NCBI GenBank assembly: GCA_050575255.1
Contig: JBNZDD010013730.1
Coordinates: 4,881,607 to 4,945,606, forward strand
Reading direction: 5' to 3'
Length of the DNA: 64,000 bases
Source: Harriotta raleighana
Taxonomy: Eukaryota
The notes beneath the pieces were generated by a model. It saw nothing but the letters and a program-made list of their open reading frames with translations, was not told the origin of the DNA and made no database searches. Below are positions 14,601-57,400 of the stretch, in pieces; the stretch's first letter is position 1; every line of letters starts with the position of its first letter. The translations under genes and the position numbers were made by a program.

Positions 14601-17600
14601 CGATTTATTCTAACTCATCTTCCTTATAGAGGTAGAGGGTTAGGGAGGGAAACTAAAACCAATTGTAGCATCACTGTGGCTGAGACGGGAAATATCAAGA
14701 GAGACCAAGAATTCAGACAGGAACCTTTCCATTTCACATGGCTCAGTGCTATTCAGTGTACATATCACAGGGAGACTAGATGGACTCTGCTTATAATTGT
14801 TTATGTAGTTTTTTTTAAAAAAAGTATTGCTTTTGCTATGTTAATACATAATATTCATTATTTGTATTGAATATGCAGGTCACAGGTTTATGCTGTTTCA
14901 AGAAATATTGAAAATTTGGCTGCGACAAAAATGACGCCAATTTTACCAGCAAATACAAATACAAGCCAAGCGTCATCAGAGAGGTCATCCAGAACGAGTA
15001 GGCAAACAACTGTAAATACCTCTGATTTTTTCTTTCACATGCAATAGCATGACCTTCATCATATTTAAAATATATGTTGAATATACACTATGTACAACAC
15101 AATAACCTTTTAATGAACTCTACGAAACTCTCAATTGGAGACTTCTGCTTTCATTTTCGAGCAGTCTTGTATGCAAGTTTCCATTCTTATACACCTTCCC
15201 ACTGTTTTCTATTTGCTGTGTACTTGCGTTCCTAGTTTTTTTGAATATACTGTGATTTTAAAAAAAATCTATTATATGCCAATGGAAAAGTGTGACATTT
15301 CTTTGTCGGTCTACAGGCTCAGCGATCCTCAGAAATAATAGCAGAGGAAACTGAACAAAGGAAACAATCACAAGTTGCAAGGACATCTACATATAAGATT
15401 TGTTCCAGAACAACTGAATTGGGGATTGAATTTTGCCTTGATGCATCAATAGAAGATGCTGTTTGTATTCGACCATCCCCGTTGTATACAATGATAGGCC
15501 AGCATGCTGTTACAATATTAGTAAGACCAGGTAAAGAAATTTTAAAAAGCACATTTTGCACTTAAGTATTTAAGCAATTTTGTTGGCGGTGTATGAATCA
15601 TGATAAACCTTTTGTTTGCAGTTCACTCAGAGCCAGACGTTGAAACAATTGTACTAGAAATACAGACAGGATCTGAAGCAGCTTCAAAAGTCATTCGACT
15701 AATGCAATGGGAGAATCAGCAAACTGTAAGAATCCAGCACAAAATGTATATTGACCAAAATTCTAATCTCTTGTGAATCGAACTCTTACATTTAATATCT
15801 TTGCTATATCATTTCCAATGAACTACGAGAGAAGTGTGTTCAATAAAATATGAATGAACAAATGCCTGATCCAACTGTAGAATCCCACTATTATTTTACT
15901 GATCATCCTTTAAAAACATTGCCCCAAATGCAAATGTAATTTTTATTGGTCTTACATTTCTAGGGAAACACATTTTTAATTCATCACGATTCATCTGGAG
16001 AGTTTTATGATTATTGAGCTTTCCAACACAGATTTGTATATTTAGTGCAACTAACAAGAAGAAAAGATTTTGCCCCAATTCATGACTTCTGTCTCCACAA
16101 TATAACCATGGATGACTTTACTTCTGAACTATTTAGCGCTCAAGCACAAGAATGTCAATGAGAAGTTTTCCAGCAGGAAATCCATCCTCTGGTACACAGC
16201 GAAGACAAAGCAGCAGCAGCTCATCAATTCTTCGCTCATCTCGTCAGGTTTGTTTTCTGCTCAAAAGTAAAGTTCCAGATGCTTGAGAACTCAGATGAGC
16301 TCCAGTCCAATGAACCACTTTAAAATCTATTTCTTTGTAACCCTAGGGCGCAGGTTCCCCTATTCTCACCATCCTTCTTCGAGCCGTAAGGATTGACAGG
16401 AAACAGCAAGGCTATCAGTTCACTGGATACGCAGAGGTTTCAGATCGTCAACCCAGAGTTCACTTGCGTGTGGTGGAACTGGCCGAAGACAGCAGGTGGA
16501 AAATCTGTGCTGACGGTATCATGCCTCACGGACATAAAGCAATGGTAATAGACAATTCTACTGTAGCTACTTAAATCTACACCAAGAGTATTTCTTATTA
16601 TTCAGTAAACCCAACCTTTTTTAAAAAAATCTTTAGGTATTATTGAGATGGGGTCAAAACTGCCAGGACTATGAGGTGTTTGTTAAAGCTTCAACTGATG
16701 AGTTTGCAAGCCAACCAGCACTTAAGATCAAATTGCAATGGTCCAGGATTCCTGTTTGGCTGAAATCAAGTGGCAGAATGTAAGCTTTAAAATCACACAT
16801 TTATTTTGCTTTAATGTGCACCTTCTATGTCGTAGAAAGCGACGTGTTTACTGATGCTTGTTATCTGGGTTCAGGGTTGGAGAATCATTACCAGGAATTG
16901 CCTACCTGTCAGGAATGTCCCAACGATATCAAAGTAATCCTTCTCGTCAGATTACAATGTTGGTCATTCGAACAACACCACAATCCATTGATTCCATTAT
17001 TGAAGTACCCAAGGTATTGCAATCTATATTCACTTTATGTAATTGTACTTTAAATGATATTTCTTTGCTTCAAGGGCTTCTGCTTTTGCATCAGAATAAC
17101 GCTTGACCTTTACTCCTGTTTCAGATGACAGTCTATTATCAAGATGCCCAATTTCCTTTATCTATTCCCATTGGTGCAGTCTTTCCATGGGTAAAAGCCA
17201 GAGGATTCAGATCCATCATGGAAATTCCTGACCTACTTCTTTCAGTGAACCAACGTAATTAGTAATTCCAAGTTTGGCCTCTAAATCTCTATTAACTAGA
17301 ACCAAATGATTAATTCAATTAAATCGTTAAATAATTTTTACTAGAAAAACAATGTAGGGAGGCGTCTTCTGAGTTTATTCGAACATACTGTATTAACCTG
17401 GGAAGGATATTTTGTGTTGCATTAAAGTGTGGAAAATATTTTATTTTCTACTTTAATCATTTGGTCATCCAATCCAAGAACGTTTGTGGGACACTGCTAT
17501 GCGCAATTGGCTGCTGCGTTTCGCTCACAAACATACAGTCAATTCACTTTACAGTGAATTCTGTGAAGCGCTTTGAGACATCTAGAAGATGTGAAAAGGA

Positions 17601-23135: not shown

Positions 23136-26100
23136 ATGAGGGGAATCATTTTTGTACTGGCTCTCGCTCTTGTGGGTAAGTTCGAAAATGTTCTACTTCC
23201 ATCTGGCAGCTATGTTTATCTATTTTTTTTGCCACATATATATATTTTTTAAAAATTGAGAATATTTCATTTGTGCTCACTTTTACTTGTTTCTCATTTC
23301 TTAGGGAGCCAAGTATCAAGCAGCGGTGAGTAAAATCTGCTTGCTTTACACTGATATTTTGCAACGTGAGCTCATATCTATGTATTCCTATTAAAATTGC
23401 ACTATAATTTTCTGTTGTTCACAGATGAAAGCAGGACTCAACCCAACTTCAGTGAGAAGCTGACCTATGTTTATAGGTATGAAGGTACGGTCCTGACTGG
23501 ACTTCCAGAAAAGGGCTTGAACAGAGCAGGTGTGAAAATCAATGCCATAGTGAAAATCAGCGCACTGGCACAAAGAAACTATCTGATGCAGGTAAGATAA
23601 TTTACAAATAATAACACATTCATTTGAGTAATTATAAGTCATTAATCTCATTGAGGCACAAGATGACTCCATCAACCATGAAGGAGCCTTATACAAAGTT
23701 AAATCTCAAGATCACATTAATTTTATGCTACAACCCTGTTCTTCTCACAAATATAGAGAGTGTAAAGAAACGGAAGTTTTTTAAAAATCTGATCAGTATC
23801 AGATTGTTGGTTATTTTATTAATGCATTGTAGCTTTATAATTTCCTTGTATGAATTGTACATTTCAGTTATATTTCCTGATATCCTTATTTTTACTGCAA
23901 AACAAAAATATCAACTGTTATCCTATAAAGTAGTTTTGCCTAAATATCAAAACCATATGTACAGCATACGAATTTTTCGCAGCATCATTTTTGAATTCTA
24001 TAGTCTGAACTCTCAAACTTTACAATCACAACACAGCCCGTTTCAGAATTATAAATTACATTTTTTGTTCAGCCAAAATATCTGATACATTAATGATGCA
24101 CACTGTTTCCGAAATACTGCCTCATCCACGATTCATTTAAAATCATGCTTAAACTACAGCATATCAATTTTTAATTATTTACCATATTAAAACACAAACT
24201 CTGTTAAGTAAAATGATAGCAAGAGTGTCTGGCCTGCCACAGCTTTGATCATTGATATGTTTTGGTTCATTTGTTTCTCAGATCACAGACCCTCAGATAC
24301 AGGAGCTCAATGGTGTTTGGCCCAATGTTCCATCAAGGACTGCAAGTAAATTGACACAAAGACTGGCAGCCGACCTTACCAAACCTATTAAGTTTGAATA
24401 CAGCAATGGCCGAGTTGGAAATATCAATGCCCCTGAAGACTTGCCTGAAAATATACTCAACATCCAGAGAGGCATTTTGAACATTCTTCAGATCACTATA
24501 AAGAACACTCAAAATGCCTATGAGTTACAGGAGGTAACTAAAGGTCCAGTCTTCACACTTTGCAGCAAATATTTACACCAACATTTTTTCATTGCTGGAT
24601 AGTAAACCAATTTGCCTTTCTTCTAGATGGGAATTCAAGGCATCTGCAATACAAAATATGTACTTCAGGAAGACAGGAAGAACAGCCAAATTCTCGTGAC
24701 AAAATCAAAGGATTTGAACAACTGTCAGGAGAGGGTCCAGAATCAAATTGGTCTAGCATACGGTCTTCCCTGCCCCGCTTGTCAGCAGGTAAACTGTTTC
24801 ATCTTATTGTTTCCCAGATATTCACACTCAAGAATGATTTCACATTGTGATGGATCTCAAGGACCTGAGGGATTTTAAGGGTGATAGGGACATCATTATT
24901 ATTGTTTTCTTATCTTTAGAGAAACAAGAATTTTCGCAGCACTGTGGCTCTCACTTACATTCTGAAGCCTAAAGTATCTGGTGCAATTATTGTCGAAGCC
25001 AGGACACGGGAAATACACCAATTTACACCATTCCATGAGCTCGATGGGACCGCTATAATGGAGGCAAAGTAAGATTCCAATGCTTTGTATATAGGTATCC
25101 TAGCAAAGTAAACCTCCAATGCGTAAATTATAGGAAAGATAGCAAAGTAAAATTTTAATCCTTAGATTATGAATGTCTGTCTGACATTATAAAGGCCTCT
25201 TTGTCTGTCTGATTTTACGTGATTTTCCAGTTCAGGGTCACAAATCAAATGTAGTTTCTCAGCTGCCATTACTAGGTGGATCGCCGCAGATTAGGGATCT
25301 AACCTGGCACTTCACAGTAAAATCCCATGAAGCACTTTAAAATGCGTCAATGATATGTGATACAGTGCTAGGCCAAATGTAAGGATTATTATTGTTTTTC
25401 TGGATCACTCCAGCTCAATTTCATTCTTAACGACAACAACAACAAAATTACATTTTTAGAGCGCCTTTGACGTTGGGATGCCCTTTGTTTTATGTCAAGT
25501 CGTTTGTTTTACCAATGAAGCTACTGACATAAAATGAGCAGAAAGTTTCCTCTGCTATTTTCTAAATAATTTTATTGTTATTTCCAACATTTTTCAACAA
25601 TAAAAGTACAATATTTGTCATTTTGGATTAGGTATGAGTATTGGTTATATCGAAGTGTCGATATTATTTACTGCTAAAGATAAAACCCAACTGTGTTTGT
25701 CTCCCCTATGTATTGCCAGGTGATTTTAAAAAAATTATTATTGGCGCAAAACTGATCAATGCTATTCTTTGCAGACAAAACCTTATTCTGGATGACATCA
25801 AAGTTGAACTAGTCCGTGAACCACAAGTGAGATTTCAGAATCGTGGATCTCTGAAATACAAATGTAGCAGTAATCTACTCCTTAAACCAATTCAGTTGCT
25901 TAAATACCAAAGCCTGGATGCTCAGGTAAATAGTCCCAATGTCATTCCGTGTTGTGTTTCATCTACATTATAAGGACCCGAATGACACATTCTTTGCTTT
26001 CGTCTGTAGATAATTGACACCGTGAGACACATGGGTCAGTACAATGACCAAGAGGTCCACTTTGATGCCCCAGAGAGATTTTTGGAACTTATTCAGCTTT

Positions 26101-29100
26101 TGCGGACTGCCTCATTTGAGGTTATTGCAAACAGTTGGAAGAGAGTTGCAGAAAATCAAGATTATAGGTAATTTTTTCATTACAATATCATTAATTACGA
26201 AATTATAAAATATAAAATTATGGGTAATTTGTGCATTACCCATCATTCTAAACGCCTATAATAGTGGCACTGAAATTGTTTTGGGTTAAGATATTTGTTT
26301 TTACATTATGAAAGCACAGAGTTAAATTAGCCGCACTTAAGGGTGAAATCTTAGTGGATTGATGTTTAGCCCATCCGTGCAGTTTAGGAAAAGGTTTTAC
26401 GGTTTGAATCACACGGTGAACGCGGCAAGAAAAGGTAGAAACTACGGAAAATGGTCTCACTTTGTTTCCCAAATCTAGGCGCTGGTTTCTGGATGCACTT
26501 CCCGCAGCAGGAACAGCTGACACCCTGAGATTGCTCAAACGCAAAATTCAAAGTTCGGAAATCAAAATCGTTGAAGCAGCTCAGGCTTTGCTTCTTGCAA
26601 TGCAACAACTCAAAGCCGACCGACAGAGTGTGCCTATAGCTAAAGTGAGTATGGACCAGAATCTAGGCTGATACTCTAATGCATGGCTGGGGCGTGCTCA
26701 ATGGTCAGAGGTGTCAGATGAGAAAAGTGAAGATTAATCTCCTCTGTGTGTCTTCCGTATAGGAACTCCTCGCCGTCGATCAAATAAGACAATCTCCCAT
26801 CCTTCGCAAAATTGTACTTCTTGGATATGGTTCTGTGGTGTACAGATTCTGTGCAGAGCGACAATCCTGCCCCGAAGATGTCCTGCAGGTAACATGATGC
26901 AGTTTAATAATGTGAGAAATTATCTGTATTACTGTTTATGGTTTGTACAAATGTCTCACAGAGGGTTTTTTTCCGTTCCAGCCACTCCATGATCTGCTTG
27001 CCGATGCTGGCAGTCGTTCCCACGAACAAGAGATTGTTCTTGGCCTCAAAGCAGTCGGTAATGCTGGACAGTCAACAAGCTTAAAACGTATTCAGAAATT
27101 CTTGCCTGGCTTTGGCAGTGCTGCAGTCAATCTCCCACTAAAGGTTCAGGTTGACGCTGTAGCTTCGCTGCGTAACATTGCAAGGAGAGATCCACGAAAG
27201 GCAAGACAAGCATTCCTCTTATTTCAGTTTTTTTAAAAAAAATGATTTGACTAAACTCATTTCCTTAAAGTTCAACGAGCTCACTTAAAATGCTTAATGA
27301 CATTTGCTTGAATGTAAACACTACAAGTTCTAGAAGTACAGAAGTCCTGTGGCTTAGTGGTTAGAGCACTCGCCTTACAAGCATGAGGCCTGTGTTCGAA
27401 TCCAGACAGATTTGGGCGAAACCATGGGCGAGTTTCCTTCCTCCACATGCCTAATAATAATCCCTCCAAAAAAACCACAATAATAAAAAAAATTGGTCAT
27501 TTCAATCTATGACTGTTTGTGGGACGCTGCTGTGCGCAATTGGCTGCCGCATTCCGCCTACAAATATACAGTCAATTCACTTTAAGGTATATTCTGTGAA
27601 GCGCTTTGGGATGTCGATAAGATGTGAAAAGCGCTATATCAAATGCAAGGTTTATTATATTATTATTATAACTACCTATTAAACGGTGCTTGGATCCCTG
27701 TAAATCTACTTTATTTTCCTTTTGTGACAGGTACAAGATATTACCATCGAGATATTCATGAACAGAAAGAATCACCCTGAAGTACGAATGGTGGCTTGCG
27801 TTGTGTTGTTTTCTACCAAACCCAGTTTAGCTTTAGTGACAGCAGTAGCTGATTCACTGCTGAAGGAGACCAGCTTACAGGTTGCCAGCTTCACCTATTC
27901 GCATATGAAAGCTCTGTCCAGAAGCTCGCTGCCAGGAATCGCGACATTGTAAGTGCACCCAATAACTTCACATGAAATGGATTGATTCCCTGTGCGAAAT
28001 CCATCGTCCTGTTAACTCAGCATTTACCAGCATGGAATCTGTATTGATAATCTCACCATTGCTCACGTTAACAGGGCTGCTTCCTGCAATATAGCTGTCA
28101 AACTCCTGAGCCCCAGACTGGACCGTCTCAGTCTCCGATACAGCAAGGTTTTCCACATTGATCTGTTTAGATGTAAGTTTTGTCCCAGAAATTTTTTAAA
28201 GGAAAGGTTTCTAACTGCAGTGCACATATCTACATGTTTAGAAGAGGCACCAGAGAGCAAACTTCCTGCATAATCCTTTAAAAATTGGAATAGGCCAACT
28301 GTACACACTTGACCAAATCATACGAACTTGTCTCAAATGATATAATTCCCTTGTTTTCTTGTCCACCACAACTTGCTTCCATCCTGTATACCTTGTAAAT
28401 AATTAGAAAATGTGTATTTTATATTGCAATATGCGTAACTCTATTTACTATTTACTAAACATTTTAATTTAAATTAATCTAATTTCAACCCAAAAGCCAC
28501 AAGTTTGGCTCAAATATGAATGTACGACTGAACATAGCGCACAATTAGTTATTTAACGGATGAGATGAACTTTTGTGGATAAATAACTTACTTTTGTTAA
28601 AATGTTAAACGAACCAGCCAATTCACTGTAGCTTTCTGATTTAGATAATCTAATGACTGGAGCATCTGCTAGATTTCTTCTGTTAAACAATGCTGGCAGC
28701 ACCATCCCGTCAGCCTTATTAGGCAAAATCCGAGGTCATGGTCTTGGGAGCTCAATGGATCTTGTGGAGGTAACAATACATTTGTACGTTGGGAGGAAGG
28801 AGCTGGACAGTCAGGGATTTGGACCCGAGCTGGGGGTTGGGATTGAGGAGGGCATGGAGGGTAAGAGGGTGGCCAGAGAAGCGTTTTGAGACCTAATTAT
28901 TAAATGTATTGTAGTATTTGTTCTAAAATAGACAAAGCAAGACCACTCCGTTCTTAAATAATCAGTATCAGTGTCTATTCATCATGCCCAAACCAAAAAA
29001 AATAGAAATTATGAGGTTGAACAACCTGAGGTCATTTTAAATTCATAAACCACTCCTTCAAGTAATTCAGTAACAGATGGACCTTAAACTTCTCAATGGA

Positions 29101-32100
29101 TTTCCCATCAACATGGAGTTATTCCTTTGTTTTTATCCCCACAGGTTGGCATACGCGCAGAGGGTCTTCAGGAGGCTCTGATGATCAATCGTGTCCCCCT
29201 CAGCAAGAGGACGAACTCAGAACAGATGCTACGTATTTTGAAAACGGTAAGAATGATTTAGTAACATTACTGGTTAACAACACTGTGGTAGACTTTTTTT
29301 TTGGACACATTAGCCTATTTAAACGTACTTTGCATTCACTCATGATCAATTTAATGTTTCAGCTTTCTGGGTGGAAAGCCTTTCATGAAGAAGTACCTTT
29401 GCTGTCGGCGTACATCAGATTGTTTGGTCAAGAGCTAGGTTTTGCTGAAATCAGGAGGGATGACATTCAGCAAGCCATTCAGGTACCAGAACACTATCCT
29501 GAAATCATACATATGAATTCTGTGCAGTCATCGATTCTAACATTCTTATTACACCCTTTTGCGCAGACACTCAGCACTTCACCACAAAACCAATTCAAGA
29601 GAACCATGGAACAGCTATCAAGGGGGATGAAAGTACGTCCAGCTAAAGCATTGCTAGCCGCTGAGGTTCGACGTGTTATACCAACAGGCCTCGGTTTGCC
29701 CATGGAAGTGTCCTTCATTTCTTCTGCTGTTGCATTGGCCAAAATAAATGGTAAGGGTTTGCAATGCTGTTTCTAATTCCAAATTCCTTTCCCGAAGGGC
29801 CACAAACATATTATTTTCTTTTTGGCTTGAGAGAGATGATCCAGGTGAACTCGCATACAGGCAGGACCACAAGATTTAACGTGATTTACATGCAGTACGA
29901 GTTAGCGGAAAACGGTCACTTAAGTAGGATCAGGTGACTTAATATGACTTGTGTGTAGAAAGCTTGTTTCAAAAGCAGCAGTGGGCAAGTAGGACTTCAT
30001 CAACATAGCTGCTAAATACGGTAGTGGCAACACAAGTTAGGAGATGATATGCAAAGGATTCAGGATTATTAAGAACCAAGAAGCTGCTTTGACATAGTCC
30101 GTTATCGAACTTGTAAAATTTGATAAGTGCAAAGAAGAAATCATAATGATTTTTAGAAGGGAAATGAACAGGACTTAGGTACATGTACGACTTAGGCGAT
30201 TATATGATTTATAATGAGACTACTTATACGAGTCTACCCGTACAACATTTACTACTCCCTGAGAGACACATGGACATCCCTCAGTTTTCTACCATAACCC
30301 CACTCCATCTGACCCTTCTTTTCAAAACCCTCCACTCCTCTGCACCCCCCTACCTCTCTGACCTCTCTCCTCAAACCAGCACCCGTTGCCTTCGCTTCAC
30401 GGGTCTGGCCTCCACCGTATCCCCCGAATCCTCCGCACCACCCCCGGCGGCCATGCCTTCAGCCACTATGCCCCGAGGCTCTAGAGCTCCCTTCCTCACT
30501 CCATTTGCCTCTCTTCCCAGTTTCAGGTCCCAGCTAAAGACCGTCTCTTCAACCGTGCCTTTGGTCACCTTTCTACCCCTGCCCCTGGCTCGGTCCCGGG
30601 ATCCGTTGTTGTGAGACACCGTCTGGCTTGGACAGTGCTATATAAATCAAAGTTGTTGTTGTTGTTGAGGTGGTGCAGCTTGTCACGAGCTGGTCTAAAT
30701 TCAAGTCCAATACCATATAAACCAAGAACACTATCATTTCAACTTGTTGGAACTGGTATAACAGTACAAAACATAGAGGAACATGTGTCTTTAGTTCTCT
30801 ATCATCAGATACGCTGCAGGAAACTATGTACAGTAATTGGAACTCTCTCTTCCCTCAAACAGTTCAAGTACAGAGTTCTTCTGCTTCTTCTCCCATCACC
30901 AAAATTTCTCAACTGCTAAGTTCCACCATTCAGATATCAAGTACAATTAACCCAAGGTATTAATTTTACAATATTTCTTTAAAAAAAACTTTAAATAATG
31001 CCAATTCAATTCTGCTGGTAAAAATTATTAGTCTGTTTTGGGATTTAAATTTTCTCACCCATAACAGGCATTTTACTCATTAAAACTCGTGCAATTCATT
31101 TTTTTTCTGTCTCTTTTTGTTTTTACACACAGTTTGGCCATTGTCACCAAAGCAGTCATGGGCATTAACACACCATTCATGCAAGCGGGGATGGAATTGC
31201 AAGCAAAAGTCAATATAAAGCAACCAATAAATATACTTGCAAGGATCAATGTAAAAGAGCAAAATCTTAAGATTGAGAGCAAACCATCTGCAGAGGAACG
31301 TCGAATCGTATCTCTTAAGTAAATACTACCATTTTCCTACTTTCATCTGTAACCAAATGATCTGAATTTTCTCATTGATGTCTAACACAATATTGGACTT
31401 GTAGTTCTCAGGTTTTTGTTACTTCTATAAATATTGAGGATTTGTCTTCTGCAAAGTGGACCCCAATTTTACCTTCAGGAAATGTACCCAACTTGATGGG
31501 ACAAGACTTCAGATCGACACGTAGCAGCTTATCAGCAGGCTACCGTCAAGCCATTGTAAGTGACTTTGATTTATTACTAAGTGAGTCTTTGGCAACTTGG
31601 AATTCCTGTGCATAACATCAGATATAACACTATACGGCTCTAACAATACGCTTACTCAAATGTGAGCCAAATATGCCAAGAATGTCCAAGACCAATCACT
31701 AGCATCACATTATGCAGATTATAAGAATTGGTGACTTAACTCAAACTCAACTGTAGAGTCACTACTTTTTCCCCCCACAATTTGTGTGACAGGGAAAGCT
31801 CCAGCGATATTAAACTGCCTGGCATGATAATAAAAAATAGTCAGTCTTTACACTTACAATCGATTGTTTGTTTCTTTGCAGCCGCAGTTGTCTCCAGGAA
31901 TAATATCTCAGGAAACATCATCCTCTGAAGAACAGCAGTGGATTCCACGTGCCTCTACATATCACACCTGTGCTATGACAACCAAATTTGGACTAAAAGT
32001 TTGTTTGGATGCTAGAATGAAAAGCTCTGTCTTCATCAAAAATTGCCTATTGTACCGTCTCATTGGTGAACATACTGTTAATGTAACCGTCAAACCAGGT

Positions 32101-33739
32101 AAAGAGATTAAATAACCCGGCCAAAGGCCATTTATTGTTGTCTACAACAATATATTGTTTGATAGTGAAAGGCCAATCAATGCCAGTCTTTGTGAATGTA
32201 TACATTTAAATCCTTCCGCCACAGTGATGATTGAACAGTAACTCCTCTAAAAGGCTCGGGAAACAATAACCTGTTCGGATCTTATTGGAGACTGTTTTAT
32301 TCTGAAGGAGTTCCCGAGGATGAAGAAACAATCATTAGCAGCATACTTATAGTTGTTACATAATAGCAATGATTGTCACTACGATTATACGTAGTAGGAA
32401 ATGTAGGAATCAGTTGAGTGACGAACTTCTGCATCTTTGACTTAGGCCAAGGATACTTGGGTACCAAAGACTTTTCTTGAATTACAACCCTAATAACACC
32501 ACTTCGGTTGAGAGGATCTCTCACAGCAGTAAAATTACGATTGTGCTGTGAAACTGTGAGATAGGTAATAGAAACTGTGATTGTCCCTGGGTTTCCCATT
32601 ACTGGCATTTCCCCAGATAATCCGTGATATCTGTCCCTGAACAACCGTGACCAAATTCTCTGTTATTTCACAGTACGAGGTAGAAGACAGCAAAGGTTTC
32701 ACTTTCAGCAAATAGACATGTTGATTCTTAGATACTAAAGGGGGCAAGAACATATAGATTATGTTTCAACTGGCCTAGAATAGTAAATCAGAGGACACAG
32801 CCTTTGGTCTTTTTCCATCTCGTATTTCTCGCGTTCTTATGTTATGTTCGATGGCAATATATGATTCATAGCAAACCTTTTCTTTCCAGTTCACTCAGAG
32901 TCAGAAATTGAAAGAATTGTGCTTGAAATACAGACAGGCTCAAAAGCAATTTCAAAAAGAATTCGATTGACAGACCAGGACGACCAACAAAGTGAAACAA
33001 TTCAGGAAGGAGTTCTTATGAGGCGCACGGAGGTATTAAGTTTATCTTCTGTGTTTCTGACACATTCAGTGACATTTTTAACACCATATCAATTTAAGGC
33101 AACCATGCGCCAAAGGAATAATATTCACTGAAGGCCAAAGGAGAGGAAGAGTTGGCATTAGGTGTTTTCTGTGCTATATTTGGATTATCGTTGCTGGGTG
33201 AAACTAACGTGTCTCTTAAAAGAATAGAGATCTCCGGAACATTGAATCACATTTCTACCTTACACCCAAAACTAGGTCTATAATTTAGTGGGATTTATGC
33301 CTCCTTTAGTTCATATCAGACAGAAAGAGTTAATCCTCTCACACCCTTGTGACTTGGTGAATGAAGTCAGAAAGAGTTCCAGATCCTCTTTTCCCTCTGA
33401 GCTCTGCAGTGGGGAACAGTTGTAGCTAAACTACTTATAATAATAAATAATCATAATATTCTTTACATTTGATATGGTGTTTTATCACACCTCCGCTTCG
33501 TCTCAAAGCGCGTTACAGAATACACTGTAAAGTGAATTGGCTGTATGTTTTGTGGGTAAAACTTGATGCTATTTGATTTATAGAGCAGAAGAAGAATTTC
33601 CTCTTTGAGCAGCAATTCCAGAAGATCATACCACTTTACTGGAAGTGAACGCCGATCGAGCAGACGTTCGCCTGATAGAATGCGTGGAACTTCCCCAGAT
33701 GATCAGGGACTTGAAGGAAGAAGTAACAGGTTACAGAGT

Positions 33740-33771
<32 letters not shown>

Positions 33772-36700
33772 CAGACTAATATCATCTAGTAAAGACAGAT
33801 CCAGTGACAGGCGCAGATCCAGTGACAGGCGCAGATCCAGTGACAGGCGCAGATCCAGTGACAGACGGGGATCCAGTGACAGACGGGGATCCAGTGACAG
33901 ACGGGGATCCAGTGACAGACGAGGATCCGATGACAGACGAGGATCCAATGACAGACGCGATTCCAGTGACAGACGAGGATCCAGTGACAGACGCGATTCC
34001 AGTGACAGACGAGGATCCAATGACAGACGGGGATCAAGTGACAGACGAGGATCCAGTGACAGACGGGGATCAAGTGACAGACGAGGATCCAGTGACAGAC
34101 GAAGATCATCCAGGAGGATGGAGGTAATTAATCATACTGCAACTACACCTGGCATTTATATAGCGCCCTACACGCGGATTAGCGTCGCGGAGCACGTCAC
34201 GGCAGTTGAGTCTGATAACAAGTTAGGGGGAGAGACAGTGGGGAGGTGACCGAACAAAAAAGGTTGGTCTTTATGCGTGAAGGAGGATGCAAGGCGGAGG
34301 GATTGAGAGAAAGTGTCCCAGGGATTTGGGGAGTAGTGGCTTCTTCAATCATGGTTAAAATGATTAGTTTCTATGAAGTTAGCAATCTGGTGCCAGCAAA
34401 TGCAGTATCCGGTNAGTAGTGGCTTCTTCAATCATGGTTAAAATGATTAGTTTCTATGAAGTTAGCAATCTGGTGCCAGCAAATGCAGTATTATAGAGAG
34501 GTTGTAAACAATTGCAAACAATACATATTTATGCATTGACAGTTACAGTGATTTCCATGGAAATGATGTGCAAATGATAACTGAAAATGATTTTTTTTCT
34601 TTTTGAATTAAATCTCAAGAGTGCAGAGATTTTAATGCTTCAGTTCAGGTCAACACGTCGCAGTGAGGTAAGATCACATTCTGTTTTGACACCTTGGCCT
34701 GATTTAAAACCTAGTAATTGGGTAAACTTCACACCTGGATAGCATTGACAATGGTCAGCCATCAGCACAAACAATAATAAAATTGCTTACTTCAAGCCAC
34801 AACTGTTTGTGGGTCACTGGTATGTGCAATTGACTGCCACATTTCGTCCAAAAATATACAGTCAATTCACTTTACAGTATATTCTGCGAAGTGCTTTGAG
34901 ACATATAGAAGACATGAAAAGTGCTATGTCAAATACAAAGATTTTCATCATCATTATTATTCATCATCTACTATTTAGAGTTAATGCATGAATCGAAAGA
35001 TGAAAAAATGCCAACTACTGTATTCTTTATCCCTATTAACATTTTACTAAAATAGATGCTGTATAATTGAGATATTATATATATATAGAGTAAAAGCCCG
35101 TTTATCCAGCATCCGTGGGACCTGGCCAATGCCGGTTAAAAGGGCTTTTATTGTGTGTGTGTATATATATATATATATACTTCACAGCATAACAATGCAT
35201 AACTTTACTTCTGAACTGTTTAGCTCTCAAGCACAAGAATGGAACTGAGAAGCAATCCAATCTCAAAGCGAACAACAGGGAGCAGCTCATCAATTCTTGA
35301 ATCATCTCGCCAGGTTTGTCTTTTGCTCAACAGTAAAGTTCCAGATGCTTGAGAACTTAGACGAGCTCCAGTCCAATTAATCACTTTGAAATCTATTTCT
35401 TTGTAACCCTAGGGCGAGCTCATCAGGAGCGCAGGTTCCCCAATTCTCACCATCCTTCTTCGAGCCGTAAGGATTGACAGGAAACAGCAAGGCTATCAGA
35501 TCACTGGATATGCAGAGGTTTCAGATCGTCAACCCAGAGTTCACTTGCGTGTGGTGGAACTGGCCGAAGACAGCAGGTGGAAGATCTGTGCTGATGGTAT
35601 CATGCCTCACGGACATAAAGCAATGGTAATAGACAATTCTACTGTAGCTACTCAAATCTACATCAAGTATATTTTTCATTATTCAGTGAAAATAACCTTA
35701 TCAAAAATGTTCTTTAGGTATTATTGAGATGGGGTCAAAACTGCCAGGACTATAAAGTGTCTGCTCAAGCATCATTTGGTCAACTTGCAAGAAATCCAGC
35801 ACTTATGGTCAAAGTTCAATGGTCCAGGATTCCTGATTGGCTGAAATCAAGTGGCAGAATGTAAGCTTTAAAATCACACATTTATTTTGCTTTAATGTGC
35901 ACCTTCTATGTCGTAGAAAGCGACGTGTTTACTGATGCTTGTTATCTGGGTTCAGGGTTGGAGAATCATTACCAGGAATTGCCTACCTGTCAGGAATGTC
36001 CCAAAGATATCAAAGTAATCCTTCTCGTCAGATCACAGTTTTGTTTGCCCTAACAACACCACGGACTATCGATACCATCATTAAAGTTTACAAGGTAGTG
36101 CAATCTGTGTCTCCCACTTCTCTTGCATTTGAAGCGATTGTTATTCTTGTCATATTTCTTTGCTTTGAGAACTGGTGTTTTTTATGCAGAAATAACACAG
36201 AGCATTTCCTCCTCTTTCAGATGACAGCCTACTATCTGGGCGCTCAAATTCCTTTAGCCATTCCCGTCAGTGCAATTGCTCCACGAATAAAAGCCAGAGG
36301 ATTCAAAAGCATCACCGAAATTCCTGACATGCTTCTGACAGTGAACCAACGTAACTATTATTTCTACTCTTGGCTTGACAACTTAGCAAACTTGATTGAT
36401 TTATTGAGTTCCCTTTTGTGGCTTTAGTTTCAAATCATTGAAATCCTGAATGTGAGTTGAAACTTTAGTGTTACAGTAAAATCCTGTAAAGAAAGCCCTT
36501 GGGAGGTTTCAATGTAAGGATTATTATTATTATTCCCAAAACGTTATGTTCCGTAATCTATTTTTTTGTTGCAGATGAATGTTTGGCGGAACCAGGAAAA
36601 GTTCGGACATTTGACAATCAGATCTTAAAATATCAGATTCCTAATGATTGTAACTATGTGCTGACCCAAGACTGTTCTAGTGTACCAAGATTTATTATAT

Positions 36701-39139
36701 TAATGAAACGTGCTAAGGATCAAACAAGGAAGTCGATAAAACTTATCCTATCAAATCCCAGCATGTGAGTACCATCAGAAGTGATTGTCTTACTCTTCTA
36801 TACTGTTCAGTAAAACAGTTTATACTGTTTACAAGTTTAATGCAAAAGCCCAGAATATTTGACTGATTCATTAGAATATAAATGAATGTTGGCCGAGAGC
36901 ATGGAGAATGATGAATCAAAGCCAACATTTTTGAAAGGCATTATCACTGTCTAGTATCTTGAGGATGTTGATCCCTTAGACTGAGAACTTAAAATATTGT
37001 TGCAGTTACCTGAGATCTTTGGGTAGTAGGTCAGTGCTTGAATGTATTAATGCAAGTTGGAGATCATTGTCTTAAAGTAGACACCAACTGTAAATACACA
37101 GAAATGAAACATAGATAGTACCCTATTCATTAAGTATCCCGTGCTTTACTACAGGCTGTGTTTTTTCTCTCTCTCTCCAGTTTTGTGTATAAAACCCACC
37201 ATAAAAGCTGGAGAAAGTAGATCACACAATGCTGTATCTACTATCTATGCCTTCCCTGAAATTTATAGTTTGTTGAATAGAATTTGTGGTTTTGTTTCAA
37301 AAACAGGGTCATTGAGGCATATCCAGAAGGTCAAGATATTAAAGTTAAAATCGACAATGTGGAACGTCCAATCAGTTCCCTACCAAGAATTGAACAAGGT
37401 GAGTGACAAACAAATTTTACAGAGGGTAAAACAGTACCCTCTGTAAAACAGTAGCAATAAATATTTGGCTTGTGGAACCACACAATTTAATTGAGCTCCA
37501 CTCCAAACTGGTGAAAGGTTAACTTACCTTACAAGTTAAAAAGGTTAACTTACCTTATCATTGCCATTTACCATGTCACACAATTTAATTCTAGACTTAA
37601 ACATTTTCTAGGATCATGGTTAATAATGTATGTTTTTAGGGATTGTCGTGAGCTAAACAAAAATACAGTTTGTTTCCGCTACATAAGTGCAACCTTGTCA
37701 ATCTCTTTGTAGGTTTTATACTCATCCTCATATTCACGGTCTTGCCCCTGCCTATCTCTCTGACCTGCTGACTCCCTATCAGCCTACCCGTCCCCTCCGT
37801 TCAGCAGACTCTGGCCTGCTCTGTGTCCACTGTCCTAACTGCCCTACCATCAGTGGCCAGGCTTTCAGCCTCTCTGCTCTCACACTATGGAACACCATCC
37901 CGCAATCCCTTCGCCTCACCTCTTCCCTTTCCTCCTTCAAGATCTGTCTCAAGACCTTCCTCTTCGACCGTGACTTCTCCTTCCCTCCTAATTCTTCCCC
38001 TTCTCCTCCTCTCCTTCCCCCTACTCCGATCACCCACCTGCTCGGTCTCGACCTGATTGTTCAGCATCTTGGGATGTCCTCCCAACGTGAAAGACACTCT
38101 AGAAATGTAATTTTGTTGTTGTTGTACCATAAGGGCCTCAAAACTGTTCCTTCTTGTTTTAGGTGTTGTCCAAATTCAATCAAATGGCACTGGAATTCTT
38201 CTGATAGCAACTGCAATGAATTTGGACTTAGTATACTTTGATGGAAACAAAGTGCAGGTATCTGACTGATTGATGAGAAACTTCTTCAAATGGATTTTTT
38301 GGGTATTGTAGTTGAATTGCACCAATACATTTTTTTTTAAACTGTGTTTTAAGGTTGTAGTGAACCAGATGAACAAGCGGACATGTGGTATTTGTGGACG
38401 TAACGACGGGGAGAGAAAGATGATCTTGCCAAATCACAACCAAACTCAAAGCGTTGACGTCTTCTTCCAATCGTGGTTATGTTCAGGAACCACCTGCCAG
38501 GATGGTAGGGGAATCGCAATCACCAATTAAATCATGCTGCGTCACTAAAGAAAAGGAAAAAAACAGCTCTTTGTAAAACAATGCATTTTCTTTCATTCCA
38601 GAGTGCAAGGTTCGACAGGAATTTGTGGAAGTAGATTCATCACTGAGTTTTGAAGGCAGGGAATCCAGGTGCTCTCCAATTGAATTAGTTCAACGCTGTC
38701 TCCCTGGATGCGCACCAACGGAAAGGGTTCCAGTCAGTGTTGCTTTCCATTGTGTACCCTCCAGTAAGTTTTTCTTAGATACTTTTTACACACTGTATTC
38801 TTTTTGAAGTTGCTCCCTTTGTGAAACTAAATTCATTCCATTAAATTCTTCTGTTAAAATAACAGTAAATAAGAAAGAAAACTTACAACGGCTGCTGGTA
38901 AAAACAAATTAATCTGGTGATGAATATTATAAATGTCACTAAATGTAAACTCATTGAAGAATTCATGGTTTGTGTCACATAGACTGAAATATTCTTATGC
39001 AAAATATTACTATCTGACCACGATTCAAATCATTAACTAAGCATATATTGATCTCTCAACAGATCCTTCTATGAGCGATCTGCTGAGTTTTGATGTACGA
39101 CGCTCTGTGGATTCCCACAGCGACTGTATTGAAGAATAA
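23136..39139 (+). CDS. vtg: Vitellogenin paralog B: 35 exons, complete (LvH-phosvitin-LvL-beta'/vWD-Ct)
   Basis: Signal peptide MRGIIFVLALALVG (exon 1 23136-23175, exon 2 23305-23325, exon 3 23425-23591). Exons are colinear with VtgA. Phosvitin-region exons 33584-34123, 34620-34667 and 35224-35313; vWD TCGICG exon 38354-38504; last exon 39063-39139 ends VDSHSDCIEE*. TTTAAAA TATA-like box at 23090-23096. Confidence 0.93.
27345..27670 (+). mobile_element. Full-length tRNA-derived SINE in VtgB intron 11
   Basis: tggcttagtggttagagca...gttcgaatcc...ctgtgcgcaattggctgccgc...aaagcgctatatcaaatgcaagg followed by a (tta)n tail. Confidence 0.85.
30300..30667 (+). mobile_element. L2-type LINE 3' fragment
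   Basis: FKTLHSSAPPYLSDL-type RT C-terminal remnant, pyrimidine-rich 3' region and (gtt)n tail. Confidence 0.65.
33584..34123 (+). CDS. vtg: Main phosvitin exon of VtgB (180 aa: poly-Ser plus SSDRRG repeats)
   Basis: tttatag acceptor, phase 0/0, GAG|gtaatt donor. SRRRISSLSS...Q(S)11RLISSSKDR(SSDRRx)17SSRRME. Confidence 0.9.
33800..34105 (+). repeat. Coding 18 bp minisatellite, 17 units (consensus TCCAGTGACAGACGAGGA)
   Basis: Counted from the translation: SSDRRR x3, SSDRRG x4, SDDRRG, SNDRRD, SSDRRG, SSDRRD, SSDRRG, SNDRRG, SSDRRG x3, SSDRRR. Confidence 0.95.
35088..35153. mobile_element. ~65 bp palindromic mini-MITE related to the 41278-41968 element
   Basis: gtaaaagcccgtttatcc...ggacctggccaatg...ggttaaaagggctttta, flanked by (TA)n and (TG)n(TA)n. 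Confidence 0.5.
37730..38125 (+). mobile_element. L2-type LINE 3' fragment
   Basis: IHGLAPAYLSDLLTPYQPTRPLRSADSGLL...AFSLSALTLWNTIPQSLRL...FKICLKTFLF, typical L2 ORF2 C-terminus, plus a (ttg)n tail. Confidence 0.8.
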
Positions 39140-48400: not shown

Positions 48401-51400
48401 CAGCAGAGAGCAAACAGAAACAGGAATTGTTGATTTACTATTTCGAGTCCAGGGCTTCTGGAACCAATGGTGCCTCCATAGAAACTCAGACTGAAATAAA
48501 CAACATACAACCTGCCCTAAGTACTGTATACTGTATAGTTCAATTACAACTTAAGCATTGAATGCATCACATCATAGAATCATAGAATTATAGAATGTTC
48601 CGGCACAGAAGAAGGCCATTCGGCCCATCGAGTCTGTGCTGACTCTCTGACAGAGCAATGTAAGGGTCACACAGCATTTATTAACCCCAATCACCAGCTT
48701 TCTCCCCATAACCCTGCAAACCCGTCTTCCCCAGATACCTATCCAGTTCTCTCTTAAAAGCTGCTATCAAATCGGACCTCACTACCCTTTCAGGCAGATC
48801 TTTCCAAATTTGAACAACTCTCTGAGTGAAAACAATTCTTCTAACCTCCCCTCTGCTTCTTTTGGTAGATATCTTAAGACTGTGACCTTGGGTCACGGAC
48901 ACACCTACCAGCGGAAACAGCTTTTCCCTATCTAGCCTGTCGAAACCTTTCATGATCTTGAAGACCTCTATCAGGTCCCCGCGTAATCTTCTCTGCTCTA
49001 ATGGGAAAAGTCCTAACTTCTGCAGCCTGTCCTCATAGCTAAGATTCCCCATTCCTGGAATCATTCTTGTGAATCGCCTCTGCACCCTTTCCAGTATCTT
49101 AATGTCCTTCCTGTAGTAGTGAGCCATAGGCAGAGCTCACTCACATCGAGTGCAGATTTTCTCCATTGATTTAGAATAAAAGTGGAGAGTTTACCTGTTG
49201 TAATTTCTGTTACTTTATTTTTCAGTATTAATTTCTCACTACAGTATTCTATAATGCAGGATTTTTAAGTCCATTTTAAGTCCATAAACAGTTTTAGACT
49301 TTAGAATTCTGAACGATTCCAGTTCATCTGAGTCTACTAATGAGCTGCTGCCAAAAGAAACAAATTCTCACTCATATTTCCATTTTAAATGTTTATGAGT
49401 TCTGATGAAGGGTCGTGGACCCGAAACGTTGACTCACTTTTCCATTCTCCATAGATGCTGCCTGACCTGCTGAGCGACTTCTGCTTTTGTTTCAGATTTC
49501 CAGCGCCTGCAATATTTTGCGTTTTTTGTTGCCATTTAATATGATGACTGGTCAACGTCATCAGCCAGTTAAAGTTATCAAAATCCCAAAAGAACAAAAA
49601 ATCCCATTTTATATCAATAAAAAATATCAATGCAATCTTTTTCTTTGCAGGCAAAACCTTATCTTAGATGATATCAGAGCAGAAGCTGTGCCTGTGCCAC
49701 AGGTTAAATTTTTCCCCCGTGGAAGCTTGAAATACACTACCGACCGTAGTGTACTCCAGAAGCCAATTCAATTGATGAAATACGACAATCTAGAGGCACA
49801 GGTAAATATTTACCAATAATATCTGTACTTTAGGAAATGCTGTGTGACCCTTACATTTTAAATTTTCATATCTTGCACTTTTCTACTTTCTGTAGATCGT
49901 TAACATCTTGAGATACCTGGCTCAGTACAACCAACAGGAAGTCCGAATGGACGCTCCAGATAAATTTCTTCAACTTATCCAGCTCCTCCGACTTGCCTCA
50001 TTTGAAGCAATTGCAAAAACTTGGAAGCGATTTTCAAACGCAATGGACAGGCAAGATACAGAGGAGTACAGGTAACTAATTAATCAAAGTGACATTAATT
50101 GTAAAATCTAAGATCGATGTCAGGATAGATGTTTATCTGTGTAGTGCCTGTGGAGCAATTATTTTTATATCAAAGACTCAAATAGAAAGCAACCAACCAA
50201 GTTTTTGATGATGATTTGACAACTTCCCCTTGTTCAAGTTAGATCAGTGAATAACAACACATCCTATTTTCCAAGAGTATAAAAAATCTGCGCAATCTAG
50301 TGCCAAATAAATTCAGCTCTATCGCACATAATCCCCTAAAATCTTCACTAACATGACAATCTTATATAAAGAAAGTAAAATCTCATATAAAAGAAGCTGA
50401 CATGGGAGGTAGAAATGGTACCCGTAGCAGGGTACAAATTTATTTTCTGTTGCTGGAATGCATGGCATTGATTGAACAACTAAGATAATCTTTACACTGC
50501 ACAGCAACTCCAGTATGTTTGTCTATTAAATGATGAACGTCCATTGCATTAAAGGTGGAAACTGTTCCCCAACATTTATCGTCATGACTGCAAAATTCCC
50601 AATAAACTTCAAGTAGTCCCGGACTCTTCATCCACCCACACACTGAGGCGAAAAAAAATACACGGCGGATTGAGTAGAATAGAAATAAAATGTTGTGACT
50701 TTATTTCCTAGATGTAGACAATGGCTTTTGGATGCACTTCCCGCAGCAGGAACAGCTGACACCCTGAGATTGCTCAAACGCAAAATTCAAAGTTCGGAAA
50801 TCAAAACCGTTGAAGCAGCTCAGGCTTTGCTTCTTGCAATGCAACAACTCAAAGCCGACCGACAGAGTGTGCCTATAGCTAAAGTGAGTATGGACCAGAA
50901 TCTAGGCTGATACTCTAATGCATGGCTGGGGAGTGCTCAATGGTCAGAGGTGTCAGATGAGAAAAGTGAAGATTAATCTCCTCTGTGTGTCTTCCGTATA
51001 GGAACTCCTCGCCGTCGATCAAATAAGACAATCTCCCATCCTTCGCAAAATTGCAGTTCTTGGATATGGTTCTGTGGTGTACAGATTCTGTGCAGAGCGA
51101 CAATCCTGCCCCGAAGATGTCCTGCAGGTAACATGATGCAGTTTAATAATGTGAGAAATTATCTGTATTACTGTTTATGGTTTGTACAAATGTCTCACAG
51201 AGGGTTTTTTTCCGTTCCAGCCACTCCATGATCTGCTTGCCGATGCTGGCAGACGTTCCCACGAACAAGAGATCGTTCTTGGCCTCAAAGCAGTCGGTAA
51301 TGCTGGACAGTCAACAAGCTTAAAACGTATTCAGAAATTCTTGCCTGGCTTTGGCAGTGCCGCAGTCAATCTCCCACTAAAGGTTCAGGTTGACGCTGTG

Positions 51401-54400: not shown

Positions 54401-57400
54401 AATTTAATGTTCTCTGTGTTGTTTTGCAGTGTGGTGACATTCACAAAAGCAGTCATGGGAATCAATACTCGCTTCATCCAGGCAGGAGTCGAACTCCAAA
54501 CAAGAGTCCACATAAGTCAACCTGTAAATGTAGCAGCAAAAATAAATATAAAAGAGAGAAATCTCAAGTTTGAGAGTAAACCATCTGTAGAGGAGCGCAG
54601 AATTATATCTTTGAGGTAAATAATAATAGTTTCCGTAATATAACCTTTAACTAGAAATCATGAAAATCATTTTTTTCTGATTTTCTTTGGATTCTATTGA
54701 CTTTTTTTTTAAAAAATGATTCAATGGCTATACAAATGAACAATTTCTGAGATGCCATGGATGGCTAAAATTGTTAAGAAAAATCTTTTTTTAAAAAATG
54801 ATTCAATGGCTATACAAATGAACAATTTCTGAGATGCCATGGATGGCTAAAATTGTTAAGAAAAATCTATTTTGTCATATTGCATAAGAGTTATCAATTT
54901 TTATCAATTTCTACCAACTGAGCTTGATTGTAATCATTAGGTGTCTAATATTTAATATTTAACATGTAGTTCCCAGGTTTTTGCTGTCTCAAGAAATATT
55001 GAGGAGTTGTCTGCAGCAAAAATGACCCCCATTTTACCCATAACAAGTGAAGCCAGCATTACAAGACAAGAATTCAAGTCACAACGCACAACACAAGACT
55101 CTGGACGAAGCATTGTAAGTGCCTTTTGTTTTTTTTAAACCTATAAGAACAACAACAAAATTACACTTGTATGGAGCCTTTCATTTCAGAAGGGCGTCCC
55201 AAGGCGCTGAACAGTCAGTGGTTCGGGAACCAAGCAAGGGGAGAGGCAGAGTAGGGGAGAGGGTAGGGAGAGAGGTGGGAGAGCGACTTAAAGCACGATC
55301 GAAAAGAGACCCTTAAGACCCTTGAAGGAGGCAAGGGAGGAAGCGAGGTCAAGAGATTATGGGATGGAGAGTGAGGCAAAGTGACTGAGGTTTAAATTCC
55401 CATGCAACCCTGCAGTACAATGAATTTGTTTTGATGATTCGGTTTTTAGGGATAGTCATTGCTGAAATGGAAAACACGTGATATTAGGCTGCCTGGCATA
55501 ATAGTAAAATTAAAAGTATAAAAAATGTTTTCCTATTACAATGGAGTTACATTTTCTTGTGTCTTTGCAGCTGCGCATATCTCCAGAAACAATATCTCCA
55601 GAAATGTCATCATCTGAAGAGCAGCGACCACGTACCACATCTACCTATACATATCACACCTGTGTTAAAGCAACTAAATTGGGACTAGCAGTTTGTCTAG
55701 ATGCTAAAATGAAAAGCACTGCCTTCATCAGAAATTGTCTATTGTATCGACTCATTGGCCAGCATGCTGTTAATGTAACCGTCAAACCAGGTGAAGACAA
55801 AATAATTTATACATTTGCTTTAGCACCTTTACACGTCAGGAAACCATCTCAAAGCACTTCATAAGATATACTGTAAAGTGGAATAGCTGTGCGTTTTGGG
55901 AAGAGGTGGAAACATTGTGCGCAGCCTTGACCCACAACCAGCCATGAATTGAACTACCTCAGATTAACATTTCATCCAAAGGATGGTATCTCCATCAATG
56001 CAGCAAACCCCAGCACTGAATTGAAGTGGCAGCCTAGACTATATGAGCTCCAAGTCCTGACATGGGATTTGAACCCCCTTTGGGACATTTTCACTTTCAG
56101 CAATGAGGCATTACATATTGGCGGCAACATCTGATTTACGATAAAACTGTTCTTTCCAGTTCGCTCGGAGTCAGAAATTGAAAAAATCGTGCTGGAAATA
56201 CAGACAGGATCCAAGGCAGCTTCAAAGGTGATTCGATTGACAGACAAGGAAGAAGAGCAAAGTGGAAGAATTCGGGAAGAAGAATTAATGAGGGTTAGTC
56301 TCCTGGTTTCGACTCACTCAATGCACCATTGCTATTTTAACACAGTATCAAATGACAGCCAAAGCATGTTCTCTGCATAAAACAGTCTAAAACATTGGGG
56401 ACATTGAATTCCTAATCTTTTCAAAGCAGGAAAAGATCAATGGGATGTAACATGGTCCACGTCTCAGTGAGATGGGAGATAGACAGCAGTTCAAATGCTT
56501 AATTGCTATTCAGCAACTTAAGAATGGAATAAATTGATGTAAGGATAGCTTGGTCTATAACCTAATGGCATTTGTACTTCCTTCACTGTCTCTATGTCGC
56601 TCGGAATTGTCATGCTTCAATGGGAATTCTAATGCTCTCCCAAAAAAAATGTCAGCCCTTTTACCTCAACAATTATAACTACCGTATTTCCCTAAAATGG
56701 AGCTCTGTAGCTCAATGGTTAAAGTACTCGCCGAGAGACCTGGGTACGATTCCAGTCAGGGTGAAATCCTGGGCAAGTTTCCTTCCTCCACACGCCTGAT
56801 AAGAATAAAAAAATTGGTCATTTAAATCAACGACAGTTTGTGGGACACTGCTGTGTGCAATCGGCTGCCGATTTTCGCCCACACGGATATAATAGTCCAT
56901 TCACTTTCAAACATATTCTGTGATGCGCTTAGAAACCTCTAGAAGACATGAAAAGTGCCAAGCCAAATGCAAGGATTATGATGATGATTATTATTAAATG
57001 CTCCTGTATTTGATTGAGACACAGGAACGAAAAGAAAGTCGCTTCTCCAGCAGCAGCTCTTCATCTAGTTCCCAGAGATCACAACTTGATGATATGGGTC
57101 GCACCGTGATACCTCCCAGCAGTGATTTGCCCGATGAAATGGATGACACCCTTCGCACACCGGAAAGAAGACCGATGAAGTTTAGCAGCAGCAGCAGTAG
57201 CAGACAAATCCAAAGCAGCAGAACGCAAGACAGAAGGCAGATGAGTAGCAGCAGCAGTAGCAGCAGTAGCAGGAGAACCTGGAGTGATCAGGTAACCCTT
57301 CCTGTTGGACTATCTCACTGGCGAGCCATTGAACTGATAACGCCCACAAAATATAACAACAACAACTTGCATTTACCCTTCCCCCCGACCCCACACACAC

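Follow-up and report, generated by a model that had tools for sequence, protein, structure and literature searches.

The phosvitin exon of an intact vitellogenin gene of the chimaera Harriotta raleighana carries, in frame, a tandem array of 18-bp units coding for S-[S/D/N]-D-R-R-[R/G/D], and keeps a run of twelve serines (Ser12). Related chimaeras carry the same repeat, and the arrangement of its units differs between samples. The account that we find probable, while leaving real room for others, is that of a coding minisatellite, common to these chimaeras in differing unit numbers, which would have grown by slippage or unequal crossing-over out of a decayed serine tract and would be tolerated as a disordered, charge-mixed extension of a Ser/Arg-rich phosvitin. 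The repeat is a real variant of phosvitin, shared within the lineage, and more likely an expansion tolerated in a fast-changing region than a domain of a new kind. Throughout, 'the window' denotes the whole stretch of DNA analysed, 64,000 nucleotides in length.

The host gene and its phosvitin exon

Three vitellogenin genes of the VTG2 type lie in tandem within the window, all on the + strand; three holocephalan VTG2 genes have been reported at the same locus (PMC10015161, in the part accessible to us). The repeat belongs to the middle gene, and we found no basis for the label 'VtgB' that the preliminary description had given it. The relevant features are these:

23136..39139, + strand: host gene, an intact VTG2-type vitellogenin, gene 2 of 3 (35 exons, 1770 aa, no internal stop; guided alignment)
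33584..34123, + strand: phosvitin exon, exon 23 of 35 (180 aa, from residue 1082; AG/GT, phase 0/0)
33737..33772, + strand: Ser12 run in AGY codons, likely the main Fam20C target (from the sequence; kinase link drawn from the accessible part of PMC7948968)
33800..34105, + strand: coding minisatellite, S-[S/D/N]-D-R-R-[R/G/D], 17 x 18 bp (TRF and codon-register reading)
33926..34087, + strand: zone of 36-bp (two-unit) sub-period, units 8-16 (lag comparison; the Gly/Asp dimer is more numerous in other samples)
34620..34667, + strand: 48-bp mini-exon following the phosvitin exon (hand-set boundaries, AG/GT, frame kept)
35224..35313, + strand: final linker exon, preceding the beta-sheet shell (lipovitellin light chain) exon at 35413
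57025..57291, + strand: paralogous phosvitin exon of gene 3, used as comparator (89 aa, Ser runs of 9, 6 and 9, no repeat)
15622..16247, + strand: linker region of gene 1, without phosvitin exon (between the exon ending at about 15725 and that starting at 16137)

Single exons of gene 2 match the Pfam families Vitellogenin_N, Vit_open_b-sht, Vit_b-sht_shell and VWD, and its splice sites have AG acceptors and GT donors, apart from one GC. Guided alignment had broken up the phosvitin exon and put a few small exons in the wrong place; we drew these boundaries by hand and verified that they respect frame and AG/GT. Exon 23 has the position of a phosvitin, between the Vit_open_b-sht and Vit_b-sht_shell exons. 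It is 34% serine, Ser12 included, and aligns both as protein and as DNA to the gene-3 exon and to the Callorhinchus milii model P0002, in a low-complexity register that is approximate. It has no Pfam match, and phmmer against 1.84 billion representative sequences returned 64 matches, the seven examined being unrelated low-complexity repeats with no vitellogenin among them.

The neighbouring genes show several features of their own. For many of the gene-3 exons, identity to C. milii models is about 80-93%, and the C. milii models retrieved carry the gene-3 phosvitin exon. Gene 1 apparently lacks both the phosvitin exon and the subsequent mini-exon (the intron there is 412 bp long and contains no N) while keeping its vWD domain; judged from its sequence it appears to be a nearly phosvitin-less VTG2, so that phosvitin design differs among the three paralogues. 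The beta-sheet shell exon opens with five codons fewer in gene 1 than in genes 2 and 3 (16347 vs 35413); its protein is 97-98% identical across the three genes (35413, 16347 and 59497). Genes 2 and 3 share a tract of 780 bp, covering introns as well as exons, at 97.4% identity (26448-27227 and 50687-51466), other shared tracts being about 66-89% identical; gene conversion is the probable cause. Just upstream of the phosvitin-exon acceptor, positions 33460-33562 hold a fragment of a very high-copy interspersed repeat (summed depth in millions), related copies of which occur in many introns of the window. A coding exon of an upstream gene, at 772-1014, has no Pfam match; presumably it belongs to SSX2IP, a known neighbour of the VTG2 cluster.

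Structure of the array

TRF reports a tandem array at 33798-34107 with a period of 18, 17.2 copies, 89% matches, no indels and a score of 431. In codon register this makes 17 units at 33800-34105, just as the preliminary description had it, and an in-frame tandem unit within the 10-60 bp of a coding VNTR. The formula (SSDRRG)x17 that it proposed holds for the number and not for the letters: SSDRRG is literally present in 9 of the 17 units, the others being SSDRRR (four), SDDRRG, SNDRRD, SSDRRD and SNDRRG. The 102 residues comprise 38 Arg (37%), 31 Ser and 20 Asp; no unit has more than two serines, and the longest serine run inside the repeat is also two. Additional open frames cross the array because the 18-mer is free of stops. 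A degenerate pattern of the unit has at least seven matches in the 1.1-Gb genome, all within 33800-34105, and the 5' part of the phosvitin exon has at least one.

At the DNA level the units fall into nine types, in the order AAABBBCDECFCGHBHI. Units two apart differ at 1.67 positions on average, vs 2.48 in shuffled orders (p=0.003, 5000 permutations), and adjacent units are also closer than in shuffled orders (p=0.031). In units 8-16 the contrast is sharper, with 1.29 differences at lag 2 vs 2.88 at lag 1. Similarity at lags 1 and 2 is the pattern expected of local duplication of one or two units at once. The higher-order 36-bp pairs noticed earlier are thus real, and the slippage or unequal crossover then invoked gains support as an ongoing process, both from the similarity in unit order and from arrangements that differ between samples.

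The same repeat in related chimaeras

Sequencing runs of two further organisms, labelled B (X5) and C (X10), gave contigs that take in each end of the array, with flanking exon and intron about 90-94% alike to the window. Over 33804-33909 the contigs pile up to summed depths of 490-922 and 310-1450 in X5 and X10, vs 52-65 on the flanks. X5 contains a 48-base contig identical to SSDRRR units, together with several contigs of diverged units whose depth is up to four times that of the flanks. Exon indels in organisms B and C sum to +6, -6 and +12, all multiples of three, while the intron indels, among those listed, measure 1, 5, 6, 4, 4 and 34 bases. The array has persisted across about 6-10% of intron divergence; family-level splits of holocephalans are dated to 150-200 Ma (PMC11521621, accessible part).

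A published peptide of the small-eyed rabbitfish (Supplementary data 2 of PMC10015161) has the same lead-in, a Ser7 run, then 20 full units and one partial, and accounts for all 16 SSDRR matches in that file. It comes from the model 'VTG2-2', curated on GCA_012026655.1 (Ohishi et al. 2023, PMC10015161). Its units read S/M-S-D-R-R-x and, as in the window, those ending in Arg come first and those ending in Gly later. Unlike in the window, the serine run is Ser7 rather than Ser12, some units have Met at position 1, and Glu or Lys takes the place of Asp at position 6; the rabbitfish model also truncates the array and attaches the exon to a gene-1 body. It includes a read-through piece of intron that corresponds to the intron preceding the phosvitin exon of gene 2, and for this reason we take the two exons to be orthologous. 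Compared by eye, the junction with gene 1 is probably a curation chimera. VTG2-2, with its gene-1 body, bears a gene-2 phosvitin exon, while VTG2-1, the body of which resembles gene 2 (again by eye), bears gene-1-like and gene-3-like linker pieces. The accessible part of PMC10015161 describes these models as hand-curated on a short-read assembly; exons of different paralogues are likewise combined in two UniRef models of C. milii, P0002 and P0186.

We count the repeat in at least three lineages, organism B or C possibly being the small-eyed rabbitfish itself. A recent or private origin is not supported by this distribution. The preliminary description had itself named, as the finding that would count against it, a repeat already standard in related species: that is the case for these chimaeras. 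The sequence has been public, but without comment. The words 'phosvitin' and 'serine' are absent from the main text of PMC10015161, SDRR was not found in the supplements of PMC6185446 and PMC8596760, and a literature search found no description of the repeat (subscription papers on shark yolk proteins or phosvitin, and scanned supplement pages, fell outside its scope).

How many units?

Samples differ in their units. In runs X1 and X4 the flanks are 99-100% identical to the window. X4 yields a 66-base contig, identical to 33954-34019, at a depth of 21.7 vs 4.1-4.4 on the flanks, while its 31-mers occur on average 1.14 times in the window; with low coverage and few read starts, we do not take such depths as firm copy numbers. 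In raw reads of sample S8 (24 reads from three runs), Asp-ending units replace the Gly-ending ones of the window in 11 of 14 reads at 34030 and in 9 of 11 at 34066, and one 151-base read apparently contains four consecutive dimers (as judged from 12 differences), the window having two Asp-ending units. Samples S4 and S8 thus hold more Gly/Asp dimers than the window, where under-assembly is possible; no read spans the array. The 17 units are either a short allele or an underestimate. Length polymorphism, proposed at the outset as probable, keeps that standing: extra dimers in S4 and S8, and 20 units and a partial one in rabbitfish, speak for it, with reads that never span the array.

Could the array itself be an artefact of assembly? 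The window does contain single Ns between short duplicated stretches, at 34414, 52336, 62690 and 63399, the first three showing perfectly matching overlaps of 77, 84 and 38 bp. One of these joins lies about 300 bp downstream of the array (34414, the 77-bp overlap), and reads show arrangements that the window does not have. The same units nevertheless turn up in separate sequencing runs of three or more labelled organisms, as well as in a published peptide, so that we give this possibility next to no weight: the existence of the array is established, and only the count of 17 may be too low. The 'repeats' that TRF reports at the single-N sites are probably join artefacts. The same probably applies in gene 1 (7334-11040), where a stretch of about 1.87 kb with six exons recurs across a single N at 9201; a scaffold join would explain it better than a real exon duplication.

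An addition to an ordinary linker

The preliminary description held that the repeat replaces most of the polyserine, which does not agree with comparison of the paralogues. Ser12 is kept, and in the alignment with the gene-3 exon, low-complexity and approximate as it is, the array falls at only the third of the three serine runs, while the first has decayed. The gene-2 exon encodes 180 aa vs 89 aa in gene 3. The site of the array and this difference in length make the repeat mainly an addition. Serines in long runs do drop from 24 in the gene-3 exon to 12 in the gene-2 exon, out of 61 serines in the latter.

For a broader comparison we used the best 120 of 295 homologues. Both anchors were present in 119 of them, and the group statistics for linkers omit six redundant C. 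milii isoforms. This collection has no serine run above 11, with 22 proteins at exactly 11, which looks like the effect of a filter, and long-run phosvitins may be absent from all the comparisons; we dropped for this reason the idea that Ser12 is the longest run in the family. With the repeat removed, the gene-2 linker is left with 157 aa, of which 29% are Ser and 18% Arg, and with 16 serines in runs. The 18 elasmobranch VTG2 linkers span 98-250 aa and 19-37% Ser (medians 192 aa, 26% Ser and 13% Arg), with a median longest serine run of 6.5 and a median of 12.5 serines in runs of at least four. By composition, what remains is an ordinary phosvitin of the shark type. Median linker Arg is 13% in shark VTG2 vs 6% in 86 bony-vertebrate proteins, and with the repeat the chimaera linker reaches 26%, vs a maximum of 21% among the 18 elasmobranchs. 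Tandem peptide repeats are common: among these best 120 of 295 homologues, 51 of the 119 linkers outscore the best of 119 shuffled linkers. They include three shark proteins with 30-mers, one more with a 24-mer, and bird proteins with 8- and 10-mers. The chimaera repeat scores above all of these linkers (52 vs a best of 38). None of the 119 has an SDRR array, and a single SDRR occurs in one of them.

Translation, phosphorylation and the D-R-R core

Skipping of the exon, use of an internal donor, or low expression of the gene would make the repeat a mere passenger. Internal GT sites upstream of the array do score 6.7 and 6.2, close to the gene's median donor of 6.65, but the true donor is stronger, at 9.3 (rank 8 of 33 among the gene's own sites, the acceptor ranking 18 of 33). 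Exon indels keep the frame in two relatives, where the GT donor is kept too, and the frame is open in rabbitfish as well. Seventeen Arg codons of the repeat contain CpG, and seven are one CpG transition away from TGA; no stop is present, and the differences listed for the raw reads include no C>T. The strong donor, the frame-keeping indels of organisms B and C and the absence of stops indirectly support translation, and we hold an untranslated or partly translated array to be very improbable.

The kinase logic first proposed for the repeat, namely Fam20C-type and basophilic sites in every unit, finds no support in the sites themselves. The repeat has no S-x-E and no S-x-S, 17 S-x-D and 21 R-R-x-S, so that Ser12 alone fits the polyserine mode of Fam20C. 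Asp at +2 replaces Glu poorly, and an Arg beside a phosphate would pair with it and compete with metals. Fam20C phosphorylates phosvitin within the secretory pathway, preferring SxE/pS, accepting polyserine without Glu and using some other non-SxE sites too; in the accessible part of that source, POMK and VLK are the only members of the canonical kinome placed in that pathway (PMC7948968). Arg at -3, by contrast, marks cytosolic basophilic kinases (PMC12650399, accessible part). A periodic phospho-switch may still be envisaged, in which one phosphoserine per unit would bring the net charge of the polyampholyte from +18 to about -16 and tune the packing of yolk platelets or the binding of Ca or Fe. 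S-x-D is indeed present in 17 of 17 units, the charge arithmetic is as computed, and Fam20C does take some non-SxE sites. Yet S-x-E and S-x-S are lacking, the serine of S-x-D is Met in 3 of 20 rabbitfish units, and the Arg at -3 points to kinases of the cytosol; we find this reading unlikely. The repeat is cationic when unphosphorylated, as had been stated, but the alternation of charges ascribed to phosphorylation needs no phosphate, each unit already placing D before RR.

Furin-type cleavage has the consensus R-x-K/R-R. The repeat has no such site, and a single R-x-x-R, which does not make a furin-type polyprotein array. It has 22 RR pairs, counting the exon end, at which cleavage would be plausible. 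In teleosts, yolk vitellogenin is processed by cathepsin D, then L or B (PMC1770952, accessible part).

What remains constant is the D-R-R core, unchanged in 17 of 17 units of the window and 20 of 20 of rabbitfish, the sole invariant part of 37 units in two species. The serines vary: in the window position 2 can be D or N, and three of the 20 rabbitfish units have M at position 1. All three changes in D-R-R codons of the window are synonymous (P=0.017, post hoc and from few events), while over the six codons of the whole unit 4 of 9 changes are so (P=0.18), indistinguishable from neutral. This invariance, persistence over 6-10% intron divergence, the top tandem score and 26% Arg leave room for selection on the repeat itself.

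One form of such selection, tentative as it is, would be a store of arginine. The three tandem VTG2 genes of chimaeras would have split phosvitin design among them (almost none, an Asp-Arg-Arg polymer, short serine runs), the polymer being an expandable ribosomal product, reminiscent of cyanophycin in composition only. Cut at its RR pairs in the yolk, it would supply Arg for urea in an embryo that retains urea, and a carrier of phosphate and metals would have become a nitrogen and osmolyte depot. The invariant D-R-R amid variable serines fits, and so do the 22 RR pairs, the general Arg enrichment of shark linkers, and the repeat's share of the protein's Arg (38 of 167, or 23%) with 2.14 N per residue vs 1.42 elsewhere; PMC5568229 (accessible part) cites work on the yolk sac and urea-based osmoregulation of Callorhinchus embryos. 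Against it, the repeat accounts for only 8.4% of all nitrogen in the protein, the Arg content of the whole protein (9.4%) is equalled by one of the 18 elasmobranch VTG2 proteins (maximum 9.6%), and unit number varies widely. We regard the proposal as improbable.

A probable tolerated expansion

In decreasing order of likelihood, we thus place expansion tolerated under weak constraint, which is probable, then the phospho-switch or packing element, unlikely, then the arginine and urea depot, a doubtful candidate, and then the lack of translation, which has little in its favour. Tolerance is preferred because the gene is intact with the exon at its canonical position, and exon indels in relatives keep the frame; because unit number and arrangement vary (17 here, 20 and a partial one in rabbitfish, extra dimers in S4 and S8); because either serine can be replaced and whole-unit changes are near neutral; because tandem repeats are common in linkers (the 51 of 119 just mentioned, from the best 120 of 295 homologues) and shark linkers are already rich in Arg; and because the neighbouring paralogues cope with a short phosvitin or almost none.

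The array would have originated at the site of the third serine run, where AGY Ser codons are one change away from AGR Arg codons, and would have grown by slippage and unequal crossing-over. Once translated, the repeat would travel through the secretory pathway of the liver, with Ser12 densely phosphorylated and carrying most of the phosphate, the repeat itself being lightly modified at most, at S-x-D sites only. In the oocyte, cathepsins would free it with phosvitin, and it would be consumed as ordinary yolk amino acids. Selection would maintain the open frame and perhaps the D-R-R core, not the length and not the serines.

If tolerated expansion is correct, we have here a clear case of a phosvitin exon freely remodelled through tandem amplification, and the array is likely to be a polymorphic coding marker as well as a lineage character for chimaeras. 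The published rabbitfish gene model is flagged, in passing, as probably chimeric. Should the D-R-R core instead be selected as an arginine depot or a packing element, the design of a yolk protein would be tied to urea osmoregulation in the embryos of cartilaginous fish.

Comparison with known phosvitins

After the rabbitfish peptide, the closest counterparts of the chimaera exon are the elasmobranch VTG2 linkers (P0007-P0024) and the gene-3 models of C. milii (P0002-P0005). They occupy the same position, are rich in Ser and Arg with short serine runs, are net basic and have few S-x-E sites, and some, such as that of Cetorhinus (P0017), also contain tandem peptide repeats. They differ from chimaera gene 2 in having no SDRR array and in their lower Arg (median and maximum as given above). 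The phosvitin of birds and bony fish (86 proteins among P0025-P0121) is likewise a linker between lipovitellin chains, of the Fam20C substrate class, and in birds it is often made of tandem serine-rich units (8-, 10-, 12- and 13-mers). Its units, unlike those of the chimaera, with their two serines at most and their 37% Arg, consist of serine runs broken up by K, R or D, and the linkers have medians of 37% Ser and 54 serines in runs of at least four.
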